30,835 nucleotides of DNA from Candidatus Micrarchaeaceae archaeon (GTDB lineage: Archaea; Micrarchaeota; Micrarchaeia; Micrarchaeales; Micrarchaeaceae), in the NCBI GenBank assembly GCA_050013715.1, contig JBEKES010000006.1, positions 1-30,835 of the forward strand. Direction: 5' to 3'. Shown here in pieces: positions 1 to 24,818 of this stretch. Under the pieces are notes generated by a model. The model was not told where the DNA came from. It did not search any database and saw only the letters and a list, made by a program, of their open reading frames with translations. Every line of letters starts with the position of its first letter. Position 1 is the stretch's first letter. The translations under genes were made by a program, and so were the position numbers.

Positions 1-65
1 CAATAAAAACTTACGTCGTAAAATAAATTTACTTATCAGAGGGCCTTTGCACTTCTGGCGTATAA

Positions 66-76
66 CGGCGAGGGCG
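66..76 (+). repeat. Cassette core 1
   Basis: CGGCGAGGGCG; an inverted T-arm-like motif GGGATTTGAACC lies at 186-197. Confidence 0.85.
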
Positions 77-272
77 GTTCATTTTCTTATAGTAAGTTGT
101 GCTAATTTTGATAAATTTTGACAGATTTTGTATAAGAAATCTTACTGCTCACTTCTTCGAGATAACACGTCTAGAAGTAAAGTAAGGGATTTGAACCGGC
201 AATCCAAACTCACATTTTTCATAAAAGTGAAACTATAAATACTATCTAAAACAGAGATAAAATGTTGATAAC

Positions 273-980
273 ATGGTAGAAACGGTTAAAAGGACTGGTA
301 AAGTATTTGAACTTGGAAATCCTTACCTTAATGAAGGTGGCTCTTGTTATTTTTGGCCTAGTGGCAACCGCGAATCTAATGTGGCTCTTTTTAGAAATAA
401 AAAAGATGCTTTAGGGGAGCACCTTGTTACAATGATAAGAGAATATAACAAAAGCTTAGAAACTAGAATGGAAGAGCCACATTATCCTAGATTACAATTA
501 GCAGATGAGAGCATAACAATCCATATAGGTAACGGTGGAAGATGGTTCGGATTGGGTTATGATATTGGTGGTGGTATTATGTCAATGCATAACCTCGATT
601 CATATGTTGATAGAATTCTGGCATTTAATGTAACTTCAGATTGCCTAGAGTTTTTGCACAAAGATATGAAAGCACCTAAAATAATACCTGAAGGAAATGA
701 AATATATAAAATTGAATATCCGTTGCCAGAGGGTTATAGTTTACTACCAATGAATAGTCCATTTTTACTTAATAGAGATTTGCTAAAACGGATTTGTAAT
801 GTATCTAAAATAGGATTTTTGGGCATTAAAGAACAAAAAACCAAACAAGAAGTATTACTTGATGGTGCTAAAGTAAATATAGAAGATGGCATTTGTATTG
901 GAGAGGGCTTTAAAAGATGGGGTGTTCCACGCTCTACATATTTACTGGCAAAATTAGTAGACTCCTGTACTTTTAACTAA
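273..980 (+). CDS. Hypothetical protein (cassette 1 cargo)
   Basis: 235-aa ORF preceded by a variant of the shared cassette promoter (TATAAATACTATCTAAAACAGAG, 234-256). Confidence 0.75.
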   Translation: MVETVKRTGKVFELGNPYLNEGGSCYFWPSGNRESNVALFRNKKDALGEHLVTMIREYNKSLETRMEEPHYPRLQLADESITIHIGNGGRWFGLGYDIGGGIMSMHNLDSYVDRILAFNVTSDCLEFLHKDMKAPKIIPEGNEIYKIEYPLPEGYSLLPMNSPFLLNRDLLKRICNVSKIGFLGIKEQKTKQEVLLDGAKVNIEDGICIGEGFKRWGVPRSTYLLAKLVDSCTFN

Positions 981-1091
981 ATGTCAACGGTTCAAATAAT
1001 TTTGTGTCGTAAATATTATTGGAATAAAGCTTGTTTATTATAGAGATTTTGAATAAGTTTTCATAAAATAATTAAATCTTCTATAAGAAAA

Positions 1092-2194
1092 GGGGTGTCC
1101 GATAAATAGGTAAATTGAAACCCATTTATCAGTATCATTATTTTGACTGGTTCAGAAAACGAATTTTGCGTTTGGAACTTTGAATACATTATGTATATTC
1201 ACTCTTGTAATCAGTTCCTTTTGTCTCATTTCTTTAAGTTTTGAAGAGATTCCTTCACCAAACGTCTTTTTGAAACTCCAAATTTCACTCTCTATGTGCG
1301 GTCGTTTGTTGTAACCTGATTTTTGTTTCCATTTCTTCTGATTTATCATTCTATGTCTATTTTCTGTTTGCATATGCAAAACAGATTCTCTCCCAGGTCC
1401 ATCTCGCAATCCAAATTGTTCTACAACATGTTTCTTACGAATACCTCTACATTTTATCATTGAATTTCTACGTACTGGTATTACCGCCACAATACCATTT
1501 CTCTCCAGATACCTGAATGTTTTTTCAGAGTCAAATGCACCATCTGCCAATAACTTTTCTAATATTCCCAGAAAAGGATCCAACAACCTTTTTACTACTT
1601 TATTATCATGTATGTATTCTTTTGTTTGTACCATGTTCAATATCTGACCTGTTTTGTCATCTATAAAGAAATGCGTCTTTATCCAACTTTTACGCACTCT
1701 GTATCGCTTACCGCACCATTCATTACTACCTGTTTTCTTCAATCCTGTTGAATCTATTATTCCTACTATTTTATCCTTGGTAAAATTAGAGAATAATCTA
1801 AATTTGATCCCAAATTTTTCCATTTTATTAATTCTCCACCATAATGTCCTAAAATCTGGAATTTTTGGTACTTTCAACTTATCCTTTATCATTTCCATAA
1901 ATCCAGTTACCTGTCTATAACCGTATCTCAACATTGATTTTGCGGTAAATCCTAATAAAATCAGATACGGATTGTAACTAAAAGGCCTGCCTCTCTTCTT
2001 TTTGTTGTTTGATAAAAGGACTTCTTCTGCCATCTGCAAAGATTCTTCCGAAATGTACAGGGTAAAATTACCCCTATTTACTAACATCTGGTTATATAAT
2101 TTCCAATTTCTAGGTGTTCTCATTCTGGTCGCCAAAGTCCAGAATACTCCTAAGGTTTTATACCTTAGGGTTTAGTGGAATTATTGGACACCCC
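1092..2194 (-). mobile_element. IS5-family (IS903-like) insertion sequence, 1103 bp
   Basis: Terminal inverted repeats GGGGTGTCCGATAA (1092-1105) and TTATTGGACACCCC (2181-2194), 13/14 match; flanking direct repeat TATAAGAAAA at 1082-1091 and 2195-2204. Confidence 0.92.
1152..2135 (-). CDS. IS5-family DDE transposase
   Basis: N-terminal NWKLYNQMLVNRG (IS903-like); IIDSTG, LADGAFD and Y-x2-R-x3-E-x6-K (YNKRPHIESEIWSFK) DDE motifs. Confidence 0.92.
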   Translation of the reverse strand: MATRMRTPRNWKLYNQMLVNRGNFTLYISEESLQMAEEVLLSNNKKKRGRPFSYNPYLILLGFTAKSMLRYGYRQVTGFMEMIKDKLKVPKIPDFRTLWWRINKMEKFGIKFRLFSNFTKDKIVGIIDSTGLKKTGSNEWCGKRYRVRKSWIKTHFFIDDKTGQILNMVQTKEYIHDNKVVKRLLDPFLGILEKLLADGAFDSEKTFRYLERNGIVAVIPVRRNSMIKCRGIRKKHVVEQFGLRDGPGRESVLHMQTENRHRMINQKKWKQKSGYNKRPHIESEIWSFKKTFGEGISSKLKEMRQKELITRVNIHNVFKVPNAKFVF

Positions 2195-2219
2195 TATAAG
2201 AAAAGTAAGATACATATAA

Positions 2220-2300
2220 GGGCTTCAATCCGCCGGATTGAAGATCGGCGAGGGCGGACTTCGACGTGTCGCAGTCGAAATTAGCCGAGTTCAAATCCCT
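2220..2300 (+). repeat. Cassette junction 2: hairpin + core + tRNA-like arm
   Basis: CTTCAATCC-GCC-GGATTGAAG hairpin; core at 2246-2256; TTCGAC-GTGTCGCA-GTCGAA hairpin; GAGTTCAAATCCC. Confidence 0.88.
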
Positions 2301-2361
2301 TAATTTTTGTAAAAATAAACACATAAATATCTAATAAAACAAAGTAAATTAAGTGATAGAA

Positions 2362-2814
2362 ATGCCAAGAGGAAACTTAATGGTAGTTACGTTGAAGCAA
2401 CATCTATTTCCAAGTGAAATAGAGCTTAGAAGAAACGCAACTTTAGATAAACCTTCAAAGAAAATTCCAGCTACGCTATGGTTAGATAAGCGTGATCATG
2501 ATCCAGAATACATATGGTTGGGTGTACCAACAGGTATTACTTCAGAAGCTTATAATGGCGTAAATAAAGGTAAAAATACAACTTTTGCTTGTCTCGATCG
2601 CAAAGAAGTAATTGCATTAAAAAGAGAATTGGTTTAATTTCCCAGAAAAGAGGAAAAAGGAAGACGTAAGAGATTGGCCATAAATAGAAGAGGACTTAAA
2701 CTTAATGATTTGCGTAGAAAAGAAATAGAGCAACAACAAACAGAAGAATTGAAACTACACCACGAGAGAATAACTCAAACACAGGGAAGAATGAGGGATA
2801 GAATACATTTTTGA
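2362..2814 (+). pseudogene. Hypothetical protein interrupted by an in-frame TAA at 2635-2637
   Basis: ATG 2362 follows the shared promoter/GTGA RBS; the same frame stays open for 58 more coding-like codons (FPRKEEKGRRKRL...DRIHF) to TGA 2812-2814. Confidence 0.55.
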
Positions 2815-2822
2815 GTGAGTAA

Positions 2823-3344
2823 ATGGCAATTCAAACGAAACCAAAAGTACCTATCGATACTCAAAGAGTTGGGAATATTATAGATGATTGGGCAAGAAAA
2901 ACTGGAAATGGCAATCTCTTAGTTCTTGGGGTATTATCTGCTGCAAGATTAAACAATTATTTATATGAATTAGAACATGTAAAAAAACAAATTGTAAAGG
3001 GAGATTTAAACAAGAGAGATATTAAAAACGCATTAAAAATTGGAATTATAAGAATAGGTATGATTCAATCAGATCATATACATCAACTTTCATTATCAGG
3101 AGAAAATGAACTTGTGATATATTTACCAATATTAAGATATTCGGAAGAGTTAAACTCGTATTTCGGAATTACACCACAAGAACTTAGAGAGGTATTGATT
3201 GATGGTGTAGTTGGTATATTAAGATTTGGAGACGCTCGTTCAGCACAAATTATTGCTACGGTTGCAAACTTGAGCAACGAAGAATTAGGTGCTGGATTAA
3301 AGAGGGCAGAGTCTGATAAAACCATCAAGCTTAGAAGTGAGTGA
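2823..3344 (+). CDS. Hypothetical protein (cassette 2, second gene)
   Basis: 173-aa ORF with the leader TTTTGAGTGAGTAAATG, identical to that of ORFs at 3553 and 9111. Confidence 0.75.
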   Translation: MAIQTKPKVPIDTQRVGNIIDDWARKTGNGNLLVLGVLSAARLNNYLYELEHVKKQIVKGDLNKRDIKNALKIGIIRIGMIQSDHIHQLSLSGENELVIYLPILRYSEELNSYFGITPQELREVLIDGVVGILRFGDARSAQIIATVANLSNEELGAGLKRAESDKTIKLRSE

Positions 3345-3402
3345 TACGCTTCTTTCCATAATGAAGTAGTAATGTGTCAAATGACATACAATGCCATACA
3401 AA

Positions 3403-3494
3403 GGGAAGTTGGTATCACGATACCAGTTCTCGGCGAGGGCGGACTTCGACGTCATTTCGACTGTAAGAGGGAGTGATACACGGTTCAATCTCTT
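3403..3494 (+). repeat. Cassette junction 3
   Basis: TGGTAT-CACG-ATACCA hairpin; core at 3431-3441; GGACTTCGACGTC; CGGTTCAATCTC. Confidence 0.85.
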
Positions 3495-3510
3495 ACCTTT
3501 TCGAAAAGGC

Positions 3511-3552
3511 ACATATAAATATCTAATAAAACAGAGTATTTTGAGTGAGTAA
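3511..3552 (+). promoter_or_regulatory. Shared cassette promoter/RBS module (TATA box + GAGTGA)
   Basis: ATATAAATATCTAATAAAACAGAGTATTTTGAGTGAGTAA-ATG; identical at 9071-9113, close variants at 2321-2364, 4815-4857 and 9880-9922. Confidence 0.75.
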
Positions 3553-3732
3553 ATGACAACAAAAAATTATCCATTGGTAAAAGATACGGATTACAAATTA
3601 ACAAATCTTTCACAGTTGTTCGAAGTCCCAAAAACTGAGAATGTGGTTGTTATACATCATAGAGATTCACTTTTTGTACTAAAAAGGATAAGCAGCACTA
3701 TGTTTTGGGAAACCAACGTACTTAGAACTTAA
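3553..3732 (+). CDS. Small hypothetical protein, 59 aa (cassette 3 cargo; not in the ORF track)
   Basis: MTTKNYPLVKDTDYKL...WETNVLRT*, directly after the shared promoter/RBS. Confidence 0.6.
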   Translation: MTTKNYPLVKDTDYKLTNLSQLFEVPKTENVVVIHHRDSLFVLKRISSTMFWETNVLRT

Positions 3733-3846
3733 CAAATTAGTTTTATCTTCATAAAGATTAGCGGAATAAACAGTTTCTTATAGGGAAGTTACAAATATGA
3801 TACTCAAATAATTAAGTTCTATATAAGCTCCATAAGAAATCAATAA

Positions 3847-3990
3847 GGGCTTCAATCCGACGGATTAAATATCGGCGAGGGCGTCTTCCTTTTTGTAAAG
3901 CCCCCACCTAAAGAAATAAGACATGTCATATCGAAGACAGAGAGTTCAAATCCCATACTGGGCGCATGCTATTAGGGTTCAAATCCTAAT
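3847..3990 (+). repeat. Cassette junction 4
   Basis: GGGCTTCAATCCGACGGATTAAATAT then core at 3873-3883; GACATGTCATATCGAAGACAGAGAGTTCAAATCCC; second T-arm-like hairpin ATTAGG-GTTCAAAT-CCTAAT at 3971-3990. Confidence 0.85.
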
Positions 3991-4040
3991 TAAAAGAGTA
4001 AAACTTCAGATATTTAATACCTTAATTCTTAATTTAGATT

Positions 4041-4688
4041 ATGAAATCCAAGATAAAGTCATTTTTAATTTTTAAAAATAGCAAAGTAAGGAAAATTCCT
4101 AAAGAATTCCAATCTGACGATAATCGTAATCCAGAAAGTTTAGTTGCATACTTCTTGAAAGAATTTACTAAAAAAGGAGATACTGTTTTTGACCCGTTTA
4201 CAGGTTTAGGTACAACTTTGATAGTAAGTGAACAGATGGGTAGAATTCCATTTGGTATAGAATTAGATAAAAAGAGGACAAATTATGTTAAATCTCAAAT
4301 AAAAAATAAACAAAATTTAATTAATGGTAATTCAAAAAATTTAAGTTCATATAAATTACCTTTATTTGATTTCTGTTTTACCTCACCATTATACACGCAT
4401 AATAATGGTAAACCTTACAAACGATATTTAAAGAATATATATGAAATTTTTGCTCAGCTAAAAAACCTAATGAAAAAGAATTCTTACTTAGTTATTGAAG
4501 TATCTAACCTAAAAGATAAAGATGTTACGACCCTTGCATGGGATATAGAAAAAGAAGTTTCTAAAGTTCTCCATTTTGAAGGTGAAATAGTTATTGGTTG
4601 GAAAGGAAAAGATAGTTATGACGATGATGGAAGTTATGGCTATGGATACGACCATAGTTACTGTCTTATCTTTAGAAATGTAAAATAA
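4041..4688 (+). CDS. Orphan amino (N4-C/N6-A-type) DNA methyltransferase-like protein
   Basis: SAM-binding motif VFDPFTGLGTT, GIELD, and catalytic-type motif FTSPLY (SPPY variant). Confidence 0.75.
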   Translation: MKSKIKSFLIFKNSKVRKIPKEFQSDDNRNPESLVAYFLKEFTKKGDTVFDPFTGLGTTLIVSEQMGRIPFGIELDKKRTNYVKSQIKNKQNLINGNSKNLSSYKLPLFDFCFTSPLYTHNNGKPYKRYLKNIYEIFAQLKNLMKKNSYLVIEVSNLKDKDVTTLAWDIEKEVSKVLHFEGEIVIGWKGKDSYDDDGSYGYGYDHSYCLIFRNVK

Positions 4689-4748
4689 TTATAAATCCTT
4701 TACCTTTATCTAAGACAAAGAGTAGGTGTTAAACATATGATTAAAGAA

Positions 4749-4803
4749 CGGCGAGGGCGGACTTAGACGTGTCGCAGTCGGAGAACGCAGGCTTCAAAGC
4801 CAT
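4749..4803 (+). repeat. Cassette junction 5
   Basis: Core at 4749-4759, then GACTTAGACGTGTCGCAGTCGG...GGCTTCAAAGCC. Confidence 0.85.
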
Positions 4804-4854
4804 AAAAAAACACAATATAAATATCTAATAAAACAAAATATAATTGTGATAAAA

Positions 4855-5304
4855 ATGTCTGAATATATAAAATCTCAACGTACTGAAAGAACTCAATTAC
4901 CAGTGCATACGAGTTCAGAAACTTTTACAGTAAAAGATCAGAAGTATGTGGTTCTTAGATATCCTGAAAATAAAGGACCAAATTTAAAACAGGCAATAGA
5001 GATAGAAAACAGCATTCCAGGAAAGAAGTTGCTTACAGGACAAGAAGCAAGAGAAATAATAAGCAATGATGAATTAAAAGTCGCATTTGAACATATATTG
5101 AAAATAGGCGAATGGACATATGTTCGTGATTCGGGAACTGAATCGCAGTCTCGAGCCGCTTACCTAATTTTCCTTAGATTCCGTTGTGGTGTGCACTTCG
5201 ACAGTCTGGATAGTATTGCTTCTCCAGTGGTAATTTTAAAAGAAACCAGCAAAGACATCGTCGCACCAAAAGATCCCGAACTGCTTAGAAAAACAGAAGC
5301 ATGA
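4855..5304 (+). CDS. Hypothetical protein (cassette 5 cargo)
   Basis: ORF after the shared promoter; ATG 4855 follows a GTGAT RBS. Confidence 0.75.
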   Translation: MSEYIKSQRTERTQLPVHTSSETFTVKDQKYVVLRYPENKGPNLKQAIEIENSIPGKKLLTGQEAREIISNDELKVAFEHILKIGEWTYVRDSGTESQSRAAYLIFLRFRCGVHFDSLDSIASPVVILKETSKDIVAPKDPELLRKTEA

Positions 5305-5467
5305 GCCCAAAATAATTAATACTAATCTTTACATAACTTTACATAAAAGTATGTAGTTTAGGGATTTGGCCACAAAATTAGCGGAATTAACACGTTTCTT
5401 ATATGAGTGTAGCAGATTTGTTACGAAAATAATTAAGTTTCATATAAGCTCCATAAGAAATTAATAA

Positions 5468-5515
5468 AGGCTTCAATCCGACGAATTGAATATCGGCGAG
5501 GGCGAACTTCGACCC
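5468..5515 (+). repeat. Cassette junction 6
   Basis: GGCTTCAATCCGACGAATTGAATAT, core at 5494-5504, then AACTTCGAC. Confidence 0.85.
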
Positions 5516-5532
5516 ACCGGTGGTAAAAAGCA

Positions 5533-5563
5533 AACAGTTAAATAGTTTAACTGTTCAACTGTT
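5533..5563. promoter_or_regulatory. Probable antitoxin operator
   Basis: Perfect inverted repeat AACAGTTAAA-TAG-TTTAACTGTT (5533-5555) plus an extra AACTGTT half-site just upstream of the antitoxin. Confidence 0.6.
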
Positions 5564-5577
5564 ATACTGTGATTAAT

Positions 5578-5838
5578 ATGGAAGAAGAATTAGTTAAAAT
5601 GTCTGAAAAAGGCCAATTGGTAGTGCCAAGAAAAATACGACAAAAGGAAGGCTTCAAAAACAGTGACAGATTCATTGCAATAGGTGTTAAAGATGGCGTT
5701 CTATTCAAAAAGATAAATATACCGAAGGTCAAGATAGAATTTGAATCGTTATCTAAAGAGATACAAGCCCATTTCAAAAAAGAAGGCATCACAAAAGCAG
5801 ATGTCGCAGAGGCAGTTAAATGGGCAAGAGAAAGATAG
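5578..5838 (+). CDS. AbrB/MazE/SpoVT-family antitoxin (VapB-like)
   Basis: KMSEKGQLVVPRKIR swapped-hairpin motif; overlaps the PIN gene. Confidence 0.88.
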   Translation: MEEELVKMSEKGQLVVPRKIRQKEGFKNSDRFIAIGVKDGVLFKKINIPKVKIEFESLSKEIQAHFKKEGITKADVAEAVKWARER

Positions 5839-6233
5839 TACTTGATACAAACATACTTATCTCAGCTCTTGGCTGGGAAGGTAATCTAAGCAAGATACTG
5901 GATAAAGTTGTGGATGGAGAGCTTGAGTTTTTCATATCTTATGATCAATTCAATGAGTTCTTAAGGGTTATTAACTACCCGAGATTGAAATTTAGCGAAG
6001 AACAAAAGGCAAGATTTGAGGCACTCATATCTAACCTGGCAACGTTTGTAAAAACACAAGATATACTTGACGTAATAAAAGATGATCCTTCGGACAACAT
6101 GATTTTGGAATGTGCTTTAGTTGCGAATGCAGACTATATTGTATCCGGAGACCTAAAGCATGTTCTTCCAATTAAAAAACTTGGGAGAATAAAGATTGTT
6201 ACTGCAAAAGAGTTTCTTAAATTACTGAAATAA
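5820..6233 (+). CDS. PIN-domain toxin (VapC-like)
   Basis: IVLDTNILISAL, DDPSDNMILECA and IVSGDLKH PIN motifs. Confidence 0.9.
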   Translation: MGKRKIVLDTNILISALGWEGNLSKILDKVVDGELEFFISYDQFNEFLRVINYPRLKFSEEQKARFEALISNLATFVKTQDILDVIKDDPSDNMILECALVANADYIVSGDLKHVLPIKKLGRIKIVTAKEFLKLLK

Positions 6234-6271
6234 ATATATATAATATCATTTAATATCAAACAATAGTATCT

Positions 6272-6349
6272 GGGAAGTTTACTTAAAGTCACGCTTCCGG
6301 CGAGGGCACCTGCTAAATTACACGTCTAAGAATTGGGGTTTAGATCCTG
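6272..6349 (+). repeat. Cassette junction 7
   Basis: GGAAG...CTTCC hairpin; core at 6298-6307; TTACACGTCTAAGAATTGGGGTTTAGATCC. Confidence 0.85.
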
Positions 6350-6388
6350 TTTAGAGATGAGAACACTCAAGGGCTAGTAAAGCATAAT

Positions 6389-6814
6389 TTAAACTATCTT
6401 CTTTTCATCCGCTACGAATATCCAGTGCCGATGGAATTTATCATACATCTGCCCGTACATTCCAAAATGCATCTGGTGCATTTCTTGGAACCTATCTTTC
6501 TCTGCCCCAACCGCAAGCTTATCAAATACAGACTTTACCTCTTCATAATTGCCAGTGACAAATATAGCATACATCTCTCCAAGTATGGGTTCATACTGGG
6601 GTGCAGCCATCCAGTCGGTAGCTGATATTTCTATAATGCCACTTTTCAGATACGCATTTATTATCCGATTATGTTTCTCTTTTGGTATCATTTCTTTCAT
6701 GGGCGTGTCGCCAAGCTTTGTCAATCTCAATTCTCCTCCGAAGCATTCGTGGTAGAAGGTCATCGCTTCAGCACAGTTACCGTCAAACAGAAGAAATGGC
6801 GTAGTCTTTAACAT
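6389..6814 (-). CDS. VOC-family (PhnB-like) protein
   Basis: TPFLLFDGNCAEAMTFYHECFGGEL...FGMYGQMYDKFHRHW; GGGTGA RBS before ATG 6814. Confidence 0.88.
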   Translation of the reverse strand: MLKTTPFLLFDGNCAEAMTFYHECFGGELRLTKLGDTPMKEMIPKEKHNRIINAYLKSGIIEISATDWMAAPQYEPILGEMYAIFVTGNYEEVKSVFDKLAVGAEKDRFQEMHQMHFGMYGQMYDKFHRHWIFVADEKKIV

Positions 6815-6880
6815 ATTTTTCACCCTTTCTTATCTAATACATAAATCAAAAGATAATACTTTTGCCCAGTTAAGATTCAG

Positions 6881-6955
6881 CCTTATTTTTTCTTACCCCT
6901 TTACCAAGCACCAAGGGAGAGATGTTATCATAAGGCAAGAAGACCGGCGAGGGCG
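6881..6955 (+). repeat. Cassette junction 8
   Basis: Left arm CCTTTACCAAGCACCAAGGGAGAGATGTTATCATAAGGCAAGAAGAC closely resembles that of junction 11; core at 6945-6955. Confidence 0.85.
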
Positions 6956-6982
6956 TTTCTTATATGTTGCTCCATTTTCATA

Positions 6983-7795
6983 TTATCCACCAATTGCGAT
7001 ATTTCTAAGCAAAGTCGAAATTCTTACTGCAGAAGCTCTTTCTTGACCTAGCTTTCTAGATATTTTCTTGCTAGCCTCTATTAATTTTATAATGCTTTTG
7101 ATCTCTTCTGATCCAACAATCCTCTTGGTACAGACCTCTAAACACCGAATTGCATCTGCTCTTTGTCCAAATTTTATGTAAACATCTGCAAGATCTACCA
7201 AACTTGGTAACGTACTTTCAAATGAACTAGTATTTCCTGGTCTAATCTCCCAGTAATAATTTGCAAGTCCCAAAGCCATTTCTTTATTATCTAGTTCAGT
7301 CCAGATTTTCGCAAGCCTTACTACGGTATCCAAATCATTAGCATCATAAGCTCTATAACCACCTGCAGATCCCCCACCGAAGCCTAGCCAACCACCTCCT
7401 GTTGTATGTCCGAACTCCAGTGTTCTTGCTTCCTTTGCTAAGCTTTCTGCTATACTTTTCTTCCCAACTTTAAGGCAAAGCTCTGCCGCTTTTGCAATAT
7501 GGGAACTCCATTTATGATCCTTATATCCATTTGCGATCTTTTGGGCGCAGTCTTCTGCCTTGCTAACAAGCCCAAGCCCCAAGTATATAGAACCTGCATC
7601 ATAAAGATCGAAGTAATCTCTACTAGCAAGAACATCTGCGCAGAGCTTTGCTCTTTTTCTATCGCCAGTCTTAAGCCATCTATGGCCTGCCTCTGCATAG
7701 TTTCTATTTATATTCAGTTTCAGTTCCTCTATCTGGGCGCTTGTTAGCTTATCTTCCATTCTAATATGTGCTTCTTTTATTGCTTTATTTCTCAT
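6983..7795 (-). CDS. Alpha-helical repeat (TPR-like) hypothetical protein
   Basis: Repeated A-x2-Y/C-L-x-x-G-x4-A helices and a Gly-rich loop; GGTGA RBS. Confidence 0.6.
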   Translation of the reverse strand: MRNKAIKEAHIRMEDKLTSAQIEELKLNINRNYAEAGHRWLKTGDRKRAKLCADVLASRDYFDLYDAGSIYLGLGLVSKAEDCAQKIANGYKDHKWSSHIAKAAELCLKVGKKSIAESLAKEARTLEFGHTTGGGWLGFGGGSAGGYRAYDANDLDTVVRLAKIWTELDNKEMALGLANYYWEIRPGNTSSFESTLPSLVDLADVYIKFGQRADAIRCLEVCTKRIVGSEEIKSIIKLIEASKKISRKLGQERASAVRISTLLRNIAIGG

Positions 7796-7994
7796 GTTCA
7801 TCACCTATTAATTTTAATATAAGTATACCGAGTTCTGTTAGGTCAACAGTTCCGTTCCATTCTAAAAGGCCCTGTTTCTTAAGAATTTGTGCGTTCAGTT
7901 TAAGAGTAGAAAGAGGCACATTGTAATATTTTGATAGATTCCTAAGCAATGCTGTTATATTCTTGTTCCCATCAACACTTGAAAGAATTAGCAA
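7785..7994 (-). CDS. Small winged-helix protein; start uncertain, possibly frameshifted
   Basis: LSKYYNVPLSTLKLNAQILKKQGLL...VDLTELG wHTH pattern. The frame stays open upstream to ~8078 without an ATG, while the RBS-linked ATGs (8077/8074) are out of frame. Confidence 0.55.
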   Translation of the reverse strand: MLILSSVDGNKNITALLRNLSKYYNVPLSTLKLNAQILKKQGLLEWNGTVDLTELGILILKLIGDEHEK

Positions 7995-8206
7995 CTGGTT
8001 TTCATTCAGTGATTTTCTTACGATTGATCCTAAGCCTGCTTTCTGTTTTGCAGATATGTAAATTGGCTTGGCATCATCTCACTTTTGTTTGTAGTATCTT
8101 TACTAATTATATAGTTATTTAAAGCAATTGGACAGTTTTAGCTGACCAAACATGCAGAGAGCCTAGACCAAATTCCTCTGCCTTTACAGAAAACAACAGG
8201 TTTATA

Positions 8207-8243
8207 TACTAGTTAGTACATATATATTACTAATTAGTACATA
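8207..8243. promoter_or_regulatory. Tandem palindromic operator
   Basis: TACTAGTTAGTACATA (8207) and TACTAATTAGTACATA (8228), 21 bp apart, immediately before the gene pair. Confidence 0.6.
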
Positions 8244-8246
8244 AAA

Positions 8247-8534
8247 ATGATTGAAATGGCGAAAATGATTATGGTACAAAGACTCAAGTATGCACCTACA
8301 CTTAATACAGTCATTATGGTAGAAAATGTCATAAAAAATTCTAAAAATTCCGTAATAACTATACCTGAAATAAAAAGAGCACTACCAAAGCAGGTAAACC
8401 ATGCAAAGCTTAAGATAATACTTGAGTATCTTGAAGAGAGTAATAAGATAGCTGTTACCATGAAAGGCATAACTTGGATACATAATACAAACCCTAAATT
8501 AAAAAAGGCTATTGAAAGAGGCATGGAAGTATGA
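8247..8534 (+). CDS. Small wHTH protein, putative antitoxin
   Basis: PTLNTVIMVE...ILEYLEESNKI; overlaps the next gene (ATGA). Confidence 0.6.
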   Translation: MIEMAKMIMVQRLKYAPTLNTVIMVENVIKNSKNSVITIPEIKRALPKQVNHAKLKIILEYLEESNKIAVTMKGITWIHNTNPKLKKAIERGMEV

Positions 8535-8884
8535 AACCTGTACGAGTGATTCTTTCAGAAGATGCAAGTGAAGTCTACAAATACCTTAATAGTAGGGCGT
8601 CAGATTCTAAAGTAGAGAGGAGCATATTGAAATCAGTTAAGAGCAAATTGGAATTGATAAAAGTAAATACACATTATGGTGAACCAATACCAAAACAATT
8701 AATTCCGAACGAATATAAAGTTAAGTATGGGATAACAAACTTATTTCATGTTGAACTATCTAATTTTTGGAGAATGTTATATACATTGACAAATGATGAG
8801 GAAGAAGTAGAAATAATCGCATTTGTACTTGATATTACAGATCACGAAACTTACAATAAGAAGTTTGGATATAAGAGACATTAA
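8531..8884 (+). CDS. RelE/ParE-superfamily-like toxin
   Basis: VILSEDASEVY...NTHYGEPI...NLFHVELSNFWRMLYTL...DHETYNKKFGY; RelE-like layout in a two-gene operon. Confidence 0.6.
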   Translation: MKPVRVILSEDASEVYKYLNSRASDSKVERSILKSVKSKLELIKVNTHYGEPIPKQLIPNEYKVKYGITNLFHVELSNFWRMLYTLTNDEEEVEIIAFVLDITDHETYNKKFGYKRH

Positions 8885-8939
8885 CAAATGCTTATATCTG
8901 ATATCATCTAATAGTATTCGACATCATTTAACATCATAC

Positions 8940-9000
8940 GGGAAGCACTCCTGAAGCTGGGCTTCCGGCGAGGGCGTTACACTGCCGGGTTGAAGCCCTG
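8940..9000 (+). repeat. Cassette junction 9
   Basis: GGAAGC...GCTTCC hairpin; core at 8966-8976; TTACACTGCCGGGTTGAAGCCC. Confidence 0.85.
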
Positions 9001-9110
9001 ATCATAGTCCTAATGGTAAGTCAAAAAATCCAGTTTAAATTCTTGAAAAGGATTTGGACTAAAAAAGAACATATAAATATCTAATAAAACAGAGTATTTT
9101 GAGTGAGTAA

Positions 9111-9737
9111 ATGACTAATCATGATAATTTGTCACGAAGAGCAAAGACAATACATTCAACATTAGACAATAGCAAATTAGTGCTTGGAATATTTACAGTT
9201 TCAGGTGAACAATCAAGGTTGTCAATTCGTATGGGACAAGGACCTAACGGAGCTAGCGGAACTTTTAGTGTTGAAGGAGCAGAATCAATGAACAATTTTC
9301 TCAATAACTTTCTTAGGCAAGGAAGTGAATTTAAATTGATTATCCTATCCGAAAGATTAAGTGAAAGAACAGCAAGACTCATTCAAAATAAAGCAAACTT
9401 GTTAGAATGCTATTTAGATGAAGATATTCTTAGAAATATCAAAACTAGACGTGTATTATTTATAGATTATTGCGATGCACCAAAAGAAGTCGGTTGGTAT
9501 TTTGTAGATAAAAATAATAAAACATTTCAAAGTATTTCTGAAGCTGAGTATAATGAGTTAGCATGGAATGAAAGATTATATGTTTATCCTCAAGCTTCTA
9601 AGGCAATTGAAGAAAAACGCCCATTAGTATTTGGTTATACTTGTACAAGAACTACGTTGCAAAATGGGGTTCTATTTCTTGGAGATAATTTTAATACTGA
9701 TGATGCCGCTCAAGTAGTTTTGAAGTTAAGTAGCTAA
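9111..9737 (+). CDS. Hypothetical protein (cassette 9 cargo)
   Basis: 208-aa ORF after the shared promoter. Confidence 0.75.
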   Translation: MTNHDNLSRRAKTIHSTLDNSKLVLGIFTVSGEQSRLSIRMGQGPNGASGTFSVEGAESMNNFLNNFLRQGSEFKLIILSERLSERTARLIQNKANLLECYLDEDILRNIKTRRVLFIDYCDAPKEVGWYFVDKNNKTFQSISEAEYNELAWNERLYVYPQASKAIEEKRPLVFGYTCTRTTLQNGVLFLGDNFNTDDAAQVVLKLSS

Positions 9738-9786
9738 AAATTAATTATAAAACAGAGTACACTCTTTACATAAAAGTATGTAGTTT

Positions 9787-9866
9787 GGGGCTTTAGCGCA
9801 AAAAGCTAATGCTCGGCGAGGGCGGACTTCAACGTGTCGCAGTCGAAGAAATAAGGCTTCAAAGCT
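9787..9866 (+). repeat. Cassette junction 10
   Basis: GGGC-T-TTAGC...GCTAA-T-GCTC hairpin; core at 9814-9824; GACTTCAACGTGTCGCAGTCGAA...GGCTTCAAAGC. Confidence 0.85.
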
Positions 9867-9919
9867 ATAAAAAAGTACAATATAAATATCTAATAAAACA
9901 GAGTATTTTGAGTGGTATT

Positions 9920-10615
9920 ATGACAACTAAAATAGGGTCGCGGCTAAGTACGGCTGCAAAAGAAAGATTATGTGAAACTTTCGGTAAATATTTGAACAAA
10001 AGAGATCCAGATATGGGTCATACTGCTGCAGATTTTATCATAAATAGTATGCTTGACAGCAAGATATTGCAAAACCAAACTTTAACAAATAAATTTGTAG
10101 AAATTGTTACAAAAAATTATGGATCTTATCCAGAAGCAGCAATGAATTTATCAGTGCCTCTTGATAATGATGTATATAATATGGGAGAAAAAGAATTTGA
10201 TAATTATTTATTTATAATAAGTAGCCCTAACTTTTTGACAGGATTAATATCCTTTGAGAACATGAGCAATGTAATTCATCATTTTTCAGAAAGGATGGCA
10301 TTCAGGGCAGCAGACAAGGCAACAGATGCAAAAGATGAGTTATATGCGGTCCTTGATTCTTTAAAAGACCCAAATGTCATATCATTAGTGCATGGGATTA
10401 TTGGTAGTCCTGCCGAAGATGGGGTTTTAGAAATAATTTCTTATGCTCTTCAATATGGTATTGAACCAACTAAAAAAGTTGGTGAGATATTAACAATTAT
10501 GAAAGACACACCAAGAGCAGTTGAAGCTATACGTAAAATTAGTGATGAATTCGCTAAATACGTTGCTGACGATGTTAAAGCTAAATCAGAAAATATGGGA
10601 TTATCTAGAAAATAA
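9920..10615 (+). CDS. Hypothetical protein, 231 aa (cassette 10)
   Basis: Likely start is ATG 9920 after the shared promoter; the track's 9809 start runs through the junction. Confidence 0.75.
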   Translation: MTTKIGSRLSTAAKERLCETFGKYLNKRDPDMGHTAADFIINSMLDSKILQNQTLTNKFVEIVTKNYGSYPEAAMNLSVPLDNDVYNMGEKEFDNYLFIISSPNFLTGLISFENMSNVIHHFSERMAFRAADKATDAKDELYAVLDSLKDPNVISLVHGIIGSPAEDGVLEIISYALQYGIEPTKKVGEILTIMKDTPRAVEAIRKISDEFAKYVADDVKAKSENMGLSRK

Positions 10616-10625
10616 AGTGATATAA

Positions 10626-10967
10626 ATGCCCACTGTAAATATCTATTATAAAACCAAAAGAGACGGTGCAACTCTAAAACCTGTTATACCAAAGCTAAAG
10701 ACGTACCTAGCCAAGAAACTAACCTGTGGCGAAATTAAGCTAAGGCAAGATGAAATAAGCGTGAGACCCATTAAAGTTGAAGGTAATGGGATGCTTGGTA
10801 GGGTAGAAGTTGATATTGTTGCTCATGAATTTGCTGAAAGAGTAAAGAATCAGGATAAGATATGTTTTGATACTAAGCAATGGCTAGAAAAAGAAGCTAG
10901 ACCAATAGATAATTTCAGAGTCTGGCTTAATCTAGGACAATTAGGACATGATGTACTGCCTACTTAA
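10626..10967 (+). CDS. Hypothetical protein, possibly tautomerase/MIF-like fold
   Basis: N-terminal Pro (MPTVNIYY), beta-alpha-beta pattern, GTGAT RBS. Confidence 0.55.
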   Translation: MPTVNIYYKTKRDGATLKPVIPKLKTYLAKKLTCGEIKLRQDEISVRPIKVEGNGMLGRVEVDIVAHEFAERVKNQDKICFDTKQWLEKEARPIDNFRVWLNLGQLGHDVLPT

Positions 10968-10970
10968 TTT

Positions 10971-11077
10971 CCTTGTACCTTTACTAAGTAGCAAGGGAGA
11001 AATGTTATCGTAACGATTGAAGACCGGCGAGGGCAACTGAGACGTTACACATCTAGGAATTGGGGTTAAAAGCCCTC
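10971..11077 (+). repeat. Cassette junction 11
   Basis: Left arm like junction 8; core at 11025-11034; right arm TTACACATCTAGGAATTGGGGTTAAAAGCCC like junction 7. Confidence 0.85.
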
Positions 11078-11229
11078 ATTTTCTAGAGATAAAATCGATT
11101 GTAATCTAAAAATAGCTTTATATATTTAAAACTCCATAATTGAATAGTGATTGAATAGTCTTAATAAGCAGAAATATTGAAAATGAACATGAAAGAGCAG
11201 TAGTTTGGGGTGTTAACCCTGCATTATGC

Positions 11230-11649
11230 ATGCCAAAAGTTAGTGGAAGGCAAAAATTATTAAATGATAATTTACGAATAGCTGCAATTAATGGTAATAT
11301 TGAAGGCGTAAAAGTAGCCATTAAGGATGGTGCAAATGTGAATGCAGTAGACCCAAATAATGGAACAGCTTTGGTAGATGCTGCATCCCGAAATTATGTT
11401 GAAATAGTAAATGTACTTTTGGATAATAAGGCTGATGTTAATGTGGCTACTTACCCTAATCGGATGACTGCTTTGATGTACGCATCAAATAATGGATATA
11501 CTGAAATTGTTAGGGCACTACTTGATAAAAATGCTGATGTTGAACGAAGAAACTGGGATGGCAATAATGCAATAAATTTTGCAAGAGAAAATAGCCATGG
11601 CAAAATCTTAACTTTGTTAGAATCGCATCTACTTAGAAAAACTAATTAA
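11230..11649 (+). CDS. Ankyrin-repeat protein
   Basis: About 4 repeats: AAINGNIEGVK..GANVN, TALVDAASRNYVEIV..ADVN, TALMYASNNGYTEIVRALL. Confidence 0.93.
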   Translation: MPKVSGRQKLLNDNLRIAAINGNIEGVKVAIKDGANVNAVDPNNGTALVDAASRNYVEIVNVLLDNKADVNVATYPNRMTALMYASNNGYTEIVRALLDKNADVERRNWDGNNAINFARENSHGKILTLLESHLLRKTN

Positions 11650-11677
11650 GTACAAATCATAAACCATTATCATATTG

Positions 11678-11724
11678 CGGGCTTTTTCTTTTTATGGCGT
11701 AAATGAAAAAGCTCGGCGAGGGCG
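11678..11724 (+). repeat. Terminal cassette junction 12 (attR-like)
   Basis: CGGGCTTTTTC...GAAAAAGCTCG hairpin running into the core at 11714-11724; no tRNA-like arm follows. Confidence 0.85.
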
Positions 11725-18360: not shown

Positions 18361-18642
18361 TTACTTTGTACTGGAAAGCGCATCCTGAAGCGCATTCGCC
18401 AGCTTTATTACCTTTCTGCCTTTTTCTGTCGTATTATATGCTATTATCCTTCTTCCTGTTTTCGATTTATACACCACCGCCTCTACTGCTTTTACCTCGA
18501 TAAGCTCATGAAGCCTTTTGGCTACGGTTGCAGAGCTCAATCTCCTTTTCTTGATTGTTATCTTTGTAAAATCGTTAAAGTTTTTGGGTTCGCTGCTGTC
18601 AGCCATCTCTAATATTTCCAAGTACCCTCTTATCATTACCAT
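18361..18642 (-). CDS. Winged-helix (HxlR-like) regulator, paralog 1
   Basis: FNDF...LSSATVAKRLHEL...AYNTTEKGRKV. Confidence 0.8.
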   Translation of the reverse strand: MVMIRGYLEILEMADSSEPKNFNDFTKITIKKRRLSSATVAKRLHELIEVKAVEAVVYKSKTGRRIIAYNTTEKGRKVIKLANALQDALSSTK

Positions 18643-23060: not shown

Positions 23061-23192
23061 CACACCCTTAAGTATCTATTAGTTTATTATACTATATAAT
23101 ACTTTGCTATTTTAAATGATACTTTACTTCTATTAGGAATAAATATATTTAAAATAAACTTTAGAAACTAAAGTATTATATATGTGAAGCTC
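23061..23192 (+). promoter_or_regulatory. Divergent promoter/operator, copy B
   Basis: Paralogous to 24380-24514; palindrome ACTTTAGAAACTAAAGT at 23158-23174. Confidence 0.7.
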
Positions 23193-23217
23193 CTATTTAT
23201 ATCAATATGGTGCTTAC

Positions 23218-24379: not shown

Positions 24380-24514
24380 CACACCCTTACAAATACATAT
24401 TAGTTTATTATAATATATAATGCTTTGCTATTTTATATATTACTTTACTTCTATTAAATATATTCATATAATTAAAATATACTTTAGTAACTAAAGTATT
24501 ATATATGTAGAGCT
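24380..24514 (+). promoter_or_regulatory. Divergent promoter/operator, copy C
   Basis: Palindrome ACTTTAGTAACTAAAGT at 24481-24497. Confidence 0.7.
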
Positions 24515-24527
24515 TCAATGTAATAAC

Positions 24528-24818
24528 ATGGCAATGATAAGGGGATTTATGGAGATCCTTCAACTGGCTGACGGGAAGGAATCTAAATCATTTAACGATT
24601 TTACGAAGATATTGATTAAGAAAAGGAAACTAAGCTCTGCCACTGTCTCAAAAAGACTTGATGAACTTATTAATGTAAAAGCTATAGAAGAAGTAGTGGG
24701 CAGGTCAAAAACAGGAAGAAGGACAATAGCATACAGAACAACAGAAAAAGGCAAAATGGTAATGGGGCTGGCAAGGGAGCTTCAAAGGGTAACCACAATA
24801 CCAAATGTGGCCAAATGA
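24528..24818 (+). CDS. Winged-helix (HxlR-like) regulator, paralog 2
   Basis: Closely similar to 18361-18642 (MIRG.EIL..FNDFTKI.IKKR.LSSATV.KRL). Confidence 0.8.
   Translation: MAMIRGFMEILQLADGKESKSFNDFTKILIKKRKLSSATVSKRLDELINVKAIEEVVGRSKTGRRTIAYRTTEKGKMVMGLARELQRVTTIPNVAK

Follow-up and report, generated by a model that had tools for sequence, protein, structure and literature searches.

Introduction

Integrons combine IntI with attI and attC and hold arrays of one- or two-gene cassettes that grow at one end; toxin-antitoxin, methylase and unknown genes are among their cargo. CIMEs of the ICESt1 type keep attL and attR but have no integrase, and new elements enter the att site at the gene end, so that tandems build up (PMC5704250; this and the following papers are cited from the accessible parts of their text). 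The SNJ2 family has a 14 bp core at the 3'-distal part of a tRNA and conserved P and P' arms (PMC5861418), cryptic elements of Thaumarchaeota have short cores from 8 bp upwards and re-use one site (PMC6563490), and the integrase of phage mv4, which acts at a tRNA 3' end, needs adjacent arm-site pairs of 11-bp direct repeats (10.1101/2023.11.06.565760). For the SSV-type "suicidal" integrases, the accessible text of PMC7253208 reports no tandem integration in its data set. The preference of integrases for tRNA genes and their switching among tRNAs is an old open question (PMC8371274).

Elements that have no integrase and accumulate in tandem at tRNA ends are already known, as are short cores taken from the 3' end. 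Here we analyze a 30,835-nucleotide stretch of DNA from a Candidatus Micrarchaeaceae archaeon (the window), in which such elements form a long array. What is new is the anatomy of their arms and the link of the cassettes to an integrase with an 11-bp core. Our literature search, which left subscription papers and supplements outside, returned no paper on such Micrarchaeota arrays, and the accessible text of PMC7253208 and PMC8371274 contains no match to "Micrarchae"; the supplements of PMC7253208, PMC8371274 and PMC6563490, also outside the search, could hold att alignments bearing on novelty. With a probability of roughly 0.6, we read the sequence behind each core as the right att arm of an integrase-less cassette, in which short boxes and a copy of the tRNA T-loop are likely DNA-binding sites of a tyrosine integrase acting in trans.

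Results

Between positions 66 and 11724, the window has 12 + strand copies of the core CGGCGAGGGC; shuffled sequences contain 0.16 copies on average, and 0/100 reach 12. Core j2 (2246..2256, + strand) corresponds to positions 63-73 of tRNA-Arg(GCG), comprising 3 nt of the T-stem, the 7-nt acceptor strand and the discriminator. The other copies start at 66, 3431, 3873, 4749, 5494, 6298, 6945, 8966, 9814, 11025 and 11714 (j1 to j12 in order of position). All window cores represent the 3' 10-11 nt of tRNA-Arg(GCG), whose gene lies on contig G000:C29; they extend 0-1 nt to the left of the 10-mer in 12/12 cases and include the discriminator G in 10/12. A preliminary description had named tRNA-Asp as the target. 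That tRNA ends in CGGCCAAGGCG, which differs from the core at two positions, and the assignment has to be given up in favor of tRNA-Arg(GCG).

The last 84 nt of C29 overlap window positions 1-84 (82/84 identical), which makes the window the distal part of a tRNA-Arg array. The full array consists of tRNA-Arg(GCG) with two proximal cassettes on C29 (L001:10318-11757) and of 11 cassettes of 442-2180 bp in the window (66..11724, + strand), bounded by the 12 cores, giving 13 cassettes in total. ARAGORN and Rfam searches located neither a tRNA nor an RNA family at the junctions, and the whole window is devoid of tRNAs. Across the genome assembly searched (976,605 bases, 92.9% complete), exact repeats of the tRNA's own 3' 10-mer follow 12/32 tRNAs. 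The count of 32 comes from a stem-based T-arm search, from which a single false call (on C42) was removed; ARAGORN under relaxed settings gave too much noise, and its names for intron-containing tRNAs are unreliable. Six tRNA-His-type cores, most of them followed by paired boxes, lie at G000:C17:10703-15604, where ARAGORN missed the tRNA-His, possibly owing to a T-loop intron. The core 11-mer is present in 0-10 copies per genome in ten congeners, and the largest array in those that could be inspected has three core copies at most.

The cassettes resemble CIMEs in being integrase-less units, flanked by direct repeats of the target 3' end and arranged in tandem behind a tRNA. They differ from CIMEs in that one array strings together 13 units (0.4-2.2 kb) that share promoter leaders, in that an archaeal genome of ∼1 Mb has arrays at a dozen of its tRNAs, and in arms that contain a T-loop copy; in addition, Pfam scans of 42 window ORFs and two C29 ORFs found no integrase, conjugation or other transfer gene in the array. 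The cargo includes an N6/N4 DNA methyltransferase-like gene (4041..4688, + strand), a small gene, putatively an antitoxin, and a PIN-domain gene in a VapBC-like pair (5569..6233, + strand), a 3-dmu-9/VOC-family gene (6389..6823, - strand), a gene pair ending in a ParE-like gene (8247..8884, + strand) and, in the outermost cassette, an ankyrin-repeat gene (11230..11649, + strand). Homologues of the 3-dmu-9/VOC gene (78% nucleotide identity) adjoin tRNA-Asn-type cores in two relatives (G102 and G209), and a homologue of the 8247..8884 cargo sits inside the first tRNA-Ala cassette of another (G055). The first cassette in the window has its end arm interrupted by a DDE-transposase insertion sequence (1092..2194, - strand), which is bounded by terminal inverted repeats and has duplicated 10 bp of its target; ends related to it are found in other genomes and in read contigs.

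An array of one- or two-gene cassettes with toxin-antitoxin, methylase and unknown cargo that would grow at one end recalls integrons. Unlike integrons, this array has no resident integrase, its cassettes often have their own promoter, and its entry site is a tRNA 3' end. No IntI gene was detected at the entry site among the ORFs of L001 or by searches with PF00589 and with profiles of the two integrase families described below (class A and class B). An attC-like hairpin formed from a cassette's own ends is unsupported (z < -2 at 3/12 junctions; own versus other arm, p = 0.20).

The host genome, at 92.9% completeness, gave negative results in searches for PF00589, class A and B integrases, Cas1, resolvase, serine recombinase and IS110; the lack of any XerA-like tyrosine recombinase in an assembly of this completeness is an observation in its own right. 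PF00589 proteins are present in 22/41 genomes of relatives, nearly always directly behind a tRNA, and 19/41 have no match (one genome, G003, enters our search tallies only). Integrases on viral contigs were set aside as distant (23-33% identity).

Class A integrases (∼300 aa) comprise the catalytic domain only and occur in 41/151 genomes of the phylum. A tRNA was called directly upstream in 50/99 loci, and the reading frame is open from inside the tRNA in 44/49 distinct starts. A typical start reads core, ∼11 nt, CGACGACAAA, 3-5 nt and GGGTTC. A forward T-loop copy is found in 31/49 starts (reverse, 5/49), with offsets clustering at +26-29. Where this copy encodes Gly-Phe, the codon pair is GGG-TTC in 22/29 cases versus 7/45 elsewhere in the genes, and T-loop copies lie in other frames in 6/26; the codon bias and the out-of-frame copies together point to a constraint at the DNA level. 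The class A distal repeats, where found, include the T-arm and extend 15-31 nt beyond the core in 8 loci. Class A elements thus share with SSV-type elements a split integrase whose frame is open from the tRNA, a long repeat containing the T stem-loop and many tRNA targets (accessible text of PMC7253208 and PMC8371274), and in L032 an ATG just ahead of the distal repeat restores the integrase frame, as in the SSV type (PMC7253208, same limitation). The window cassettes are unlike SSV-type elements, having only the 11-bp core, with its extension of at most 1 nt, and no integrase fragment.

Several class A loci show further arrangements. Tandem 3' ends of two tRNAs stand at the start of the integrase frame in L161/L032, L024/L029/L198, L162 and L180; the near-identical integrases of L161 and L032 have entered at either of two tRNA ends, making a mechanism of target switching visible. 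Three genomes of one genus (G042, G060, G098) hold 7-9 class A integrase copies each, and the class A element at L032:13161-18464 carries a copper-type P-ATPase, a copper-binding protein and a PadR regulator. L034 has, ∼5.4 kb behind its tRNA, a gene-less mini element of 93 bp that is framed by two long repeats and includes a box and a T-loop copy.

Class B integrases (400-470 aa) contain SAM-like, catalytic and C-terminal zinc-ribbon domains, and their nearest solved relatives are archaeal XerA structures (4a8e and 5hxy). They are found in 55/201 genomes of the order and directly behind a tRNA in 51/53 matches (duplicates included; 38 distinct starts). The gene is intact, and its start, preceded by a TATA-like box, lies ∼50-80 nt downstream of the core; in SNJ2, as far as the accessible text goes, the att site instead lies past the 3' end of int, and class B differs in this position and in its C-terminal zinc ribbon. 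A forward T-loop copy is present in 16/38 class B starts (reverse, 0/38) at offsets of +13 or +22-24. A distal repeat was located in 15/21 loci with extended flanks, and none within the fetched DNA in 6/21. In 15/15 cases it equals tRNA positions 63-73 ± two bases, reaching 0-2 nt to the left and at least 1 nt to the right of the 10-mer at its first copy. This is the 11-bp repeat of the window cassettes, and class B genes stand twice behind tRNA-Arg(GCG) itself, in G005 (L047) and G001 (L045). The class B, XerA-like zinc-ribbon integrase is likely the enzyme that moves the cassettes in trans. The G005 element at tRNA-Arg(GCG) also carries HNH, NucS/MrcB-like and Shedu-like genes.

We then compared the sequences that follow the cores. 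A de novo motif search over all cassette starts returned the 11-bp word TCGACG(T/A)CAAA. This word stands either singly, in reverse orientation, or in pairs, which are head to head or direct with a period of 11 nt. Behind core j2, a head-to-head pair of TCGAC-type boxes (2260..2279) may represent arm-type protein-binding sites; pairs of the same type lie at ∼4763-4782 (j5) and 9828-9847 (j10), and the same palindromic pair occurs elsewhere behind Leu(GAG) and Asn(GTT) cores. Junction j3 has a direct-repeat pair of 11-bp boxes (3446..3467, + strand), the commonest start type genome-wide. At j7, a reverse, degenerate box (6318..6328, - strand) precedes the T-loop copy and scores below the 95th percentile; the start at j11 is similar.

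Strong box matches are concentrated genome-wide within 70 nt behind tRNA cores, at 25/62 of these sites versus 27/3000 random places, a figure that is partly circular because the profile was trained on non-Arg junctions. A profile trained only on class A starts from other genomes recovers the box at 8/22 repeats outside the window, 6/12 occupied tRNAs and 2/33 upstream arms, and in only 3/38 class B starts; the box is thus typical of class A. The window boxes are degenerate, and 1-2/12 junctions pass the box profiles; a first hand-written pattern was too strict (2/12 in the window, 0/38 in class B). Words of ∼11 bp repeated near the core in direct or inverted pairs, weakly so in the window, are what arm-type sites look like, and by analogy the direct pairs of 11-bp boxes resemble the arm-type sites of mv4. 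Exact patterns of the direct and inverted box pairs match 2 and 3 of 248 genomes, so the exact words are not conserved, and they led to no third integrase family in these 248 genomes. An exact-pattern scan of contigs gave 107 stretches; the 80 listed comprise one Micrarchaeota record (L069) and, almost without exception otherwise, sequences of unrelated bacteria, which were treated as chance matches.

The T-loop copy was scored with a profile of 32 T-arms (positions 52-62) against 3000 random genomic 100-mers. A forward T-loop-like word at or above the 95th percentile follows the core at 6/12 window junctions (j2, j3, j4, j5, j7 and j11; binomial p = 1e-5). On the + strand, these copies lie at 2288..2298 (j2, +33 from the discriminator), 3482-3492 (j3), 3943-3953 and 3976-3986 (j4), 4791-4801 (j5), 6337-6347 (j7) and 11064-11074 (j11). 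The copy at j10 (9856-9866) is borderline, and that at j9 (8984-8997) is weak, this junction scoring best on the reverse strand. The word is absent within 100 nt of the core at j1, j6, j8 and j12; an inverted T-loop-like word (186..197, - strand) lies 110 nt after core j1. The window offsets (+30, +33, +42, +61) are unlike those of class B; at j4, where a T-arm copy stands ahead of GGGCG, the second copy comes after these at +13, an offset of class B. Upstream arms have a forward copy in 2/33 cases. Repeat-less tRNAs form an imperfect control, as 4/20 of them show a T-loop-like word versus 3/12 occupied tRNAs; some of the 20 are probably occupied sites, and those for Tyr, Thr and Ser show boxes too. 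Of the 13 nt at 4781-4793, 12 agree with the D-stem/anticodon-stem sequence of tRNA-Arg(GCG) (p = 0.005 in one test out of 48).

We find that the copies follow their target tRNA in part. Positions 49-50 match the junction's own tRNA in 69% and 62% of cases versus 22% and 26% (13/90 cassette junctions have the anchor needed for this comparison). TG-type copies are found at 7/14 Ala/Cys junctions versus 7/163 others, which is only suggestive of covariation with the target, since the class A Ala elements form one clade and counter-examples exist. A rank test, leaving out rows with a top score <13, gave a mean relative rank of 0.40 (p = 0.012) over 50 non-independent junctions. The independent events behind this partial tracking are few.

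Real and conserved, the T-loop copy in the attachment arm lends itself to testing. Our search of the literature on attP arms, which covered titles, abstract starts and passages, found no description of it, and the accessible text on SNJ2, the Thaumarchaeota elements and mv4 does not mention a T-loop copy in an arm.

These motifs had been described before as a permuted tRNA-Asp mimic; on this view they would fold as RNA or single-stranded DNA and be read by a recombinase in the manner of an integron attC. The strings quoted in that description are all present at the junctions named, TTCGAC-N8-GTCGAA is able to pair in j2, 85.7% of stem cells are paired over 7 homologues, and 5/11 circle junctions built in silico reach z < -2 on a strand. 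Other results speak against the fold. The supposed Asp anticodon arm recurs behind Leu and Asn cores with GTT replacing GTC, the target is tRNA-Arg, and some boxes are direct repeats that are unable to pair. Covariation of the 6-bp "anticodon stem" over the 7 homologues does not rise above shuffles (144/500 were as high). The distance from GTC to TTCAAA, said to be close to that from anticodon to T-loop, is 22 or 16 nt (j2/j5/j10) and 20 nt (j4) from start to start, compared with 19 nt in tRNA-Arg. Folding z-scores range from -1.33 to +0.85 in 8/8 junctions tested (tRNA control, -3.43), and the T-stem pairs beyond the innermost one are kept in only ∼25-65% of T-loop copies. Poor conservation of the stem and folding no better than shuffles define the T-loop copy as a sequence word rather than a hairpin. 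The permuted tRNA-Asp fold is already largely refuted, and we consider it scarcely credible.

An alignment of the 100 nt behind each core, suggested at the same time, favors tRNA-Arg (3/12 at p ≤ 0.01 against dinucleotide shuffles) over tRNA-Asp (only 1/12), and the matches at j2 and j4 are T-arm sequence. The broader idea that the attachment site mimics a tRNA for the recombinase survives in its T-loop part, which fits the comparative data: the copy stands at fixed offsets on the forward strand, where the elements of two tyrosine integrase families that target tRNAs begin. Its Asp and anticodon-arm parts are refuted. The further suggestion of a tRNA 3' half split by cargo finds no support: the copy follows the core, the acceptor strand is usually missing behind it, and the repeats are bounded by the 11-bp core of the integrase.

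The copies could instead be non-functional relics of earlier att sites, left by crossover in the T-loop of class A elements or by a target switch and decaying behind the core. The long class A repeats that include the T-arm and the tandem ends of two tRNAs in some class A elements are in line with such an origin. So is the window sequence 3941-3986, a T-arm copy followed after five other bases by GGGCG, which resembles a decayed long att site; for several copies elsewhere, the match to their own tRNA reaches the variable loop (17/22 for Tyr, 18/22 for Ser). We nevertheless regard relics as unlikely. Offsets are fixed across many targets, only the forward strand is used and there is a GGG-TTC codon bias; identity to the T-arm drops after positions 58-61, mostly with no acceptor strand behind, and intact class B elements have the copy too, although their repeat excludes the T-loop.

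Farther downstream, a shared leader (2312..2365, + strand; repeat family D1) consists of a TATA-like box, a GTGA-type ribosome site and a start codon, with further copies at 3504, 4806, 9062 and 9871. From its position it is a putative cassette promoter; a sigma-70 promoter scan was uninformative, the host being archaeal. Box and T-loop copy might then serve mainly to control transcription from this promoter, by integrase autoregulation or through a host factor, since they lie just upstream of the TATA-like box and start codon in class B and at j2, j3, j5, j9 and j10. This appears quite unlikely as their main role: in class A the motifs fall within the reading frame of the integrase, and the printed starts show no evident TATA-like box after them; strong boxes concentrate behind tRNA cores, not ahead of ordinary genes. 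Roles in transcription control and in recombination are not mutually exclusive.

The left arms that end the cassettes fall into several types. One, a T-loop-like word with its inverted repeat (2219..2245; family D5), ends cassettes at j2, j4 and j6. Another (4690..4748, + strand) is 88.5% identical over 61 nt to a left arm of the tRNA-Asp array (G000:C31), and in G005 and G004 related arms accompany cores of the Arg and Asp types; a left arm is also common to Arg and Leu cores. Comparison of window left arms with class B attR arms revealed no clear homology (1/13 at p < 0.05). Judged by these sequences, arms and cargo are modular. In G010, an empty unit of 121 bp has a start of the j4 type and an end of the j1 type; box and T-loop copy are present at the junction behind it.

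Near-identical arms around different cores (Arg/Asp and Arg/Leu), together with cargo genes common to Arg, Asn and Ala arrays, would also be expected if a transposase- or casposase-like enzyme docked on the tRNA T-arm and duplicated 11 bp, the core then being a target-site duplication. We hold this to be very unlikely. Neither terminal inverted repeats at the cassette ends nor a Cas1-like enzyme in the genome, the signs of a casposon, was found, IS110 is likewise missing, a cassette's own ends pair no better than other pairings (p = 0.20), and tyrosine-integrase elements leave the same 11-bp repeat.

Discussion

Taking the sequence behind the core as a right att arm, we envisage the following course of events. 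The cassette circle would contain the left arm, the 11-bp core, the boxes, the T-loop copy, the promoter and the gene. A class B integrase supplied by a passing element would recombine this circle into the tRNA 3' end, restoring the tRNA and displacing older cassettes outwards, so that the newest would adjoin the tRNA. The T-loop copy may offer the enzyme, or a helper, the same word that flanks the core in any tRNA gene. In agreement with an arm function, box and T-loop copy recur irrespective of the anticodon at the starts of cassettes and of both integrase families. Against this mechanism stand the negative recombinase searches in the host genome, the half of the window junctions that lack a clear T-loop copy, the weak left-arm homology to class B, the contigs without signs of excision and the box being commoner in class A than in class B starts.

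With regard to an origin by decay, as in CIMEs, the cassette starts resemble class A and class B starts in layout, with weak arm alignments. With regard to CIME-like mobilization, the class B genes at the same tRNA in G005 and G001 are candidate helpers, and neither an excised circle nor a skipped cassette appears in the contigs of 7 runs, which drop rare forms. A joint 3466->3872 in a read contig and a loose end tRNA|3431 (X1) were rejected as excision products, since the first C29 cassette has look-alike arms that explain both. In X4 and X6, the tRNA is followed by an alternative sequence, which probably derives from another organism; the upstream flank of X6 differs.

A T-loop word in the element arm of two integrase families and of passenger cassettes bears directly on the question of tRNA preference and switching. 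More tentatively, and with doubt prevailing, Micrarchaeota may practice a distributed, integron-like gene capture that manages without a resident integrase, uses a dozen tRNA 3' ends and relies on a T-loop docking word partly tuned to the target. On this reading, a single integrase domain would recognize one T-loop word both in the cassette and in the tRNA gene; this would account for the ease of target switching among tRNAs and represent a type of attP arm site absent from the literature searched. The cassette arrays look like one of the chief ways in which these reduced genomes gain accessory genes, and an integrase with an 11-bp tRNA core could serve as an archaeal genetic tool.

Outside the array, the window holds paralogous winged-helix genes at 18361-18642 and 24528-24818 and a repeated AT-rich upstream region at 23070-23199 and 24391-24522.
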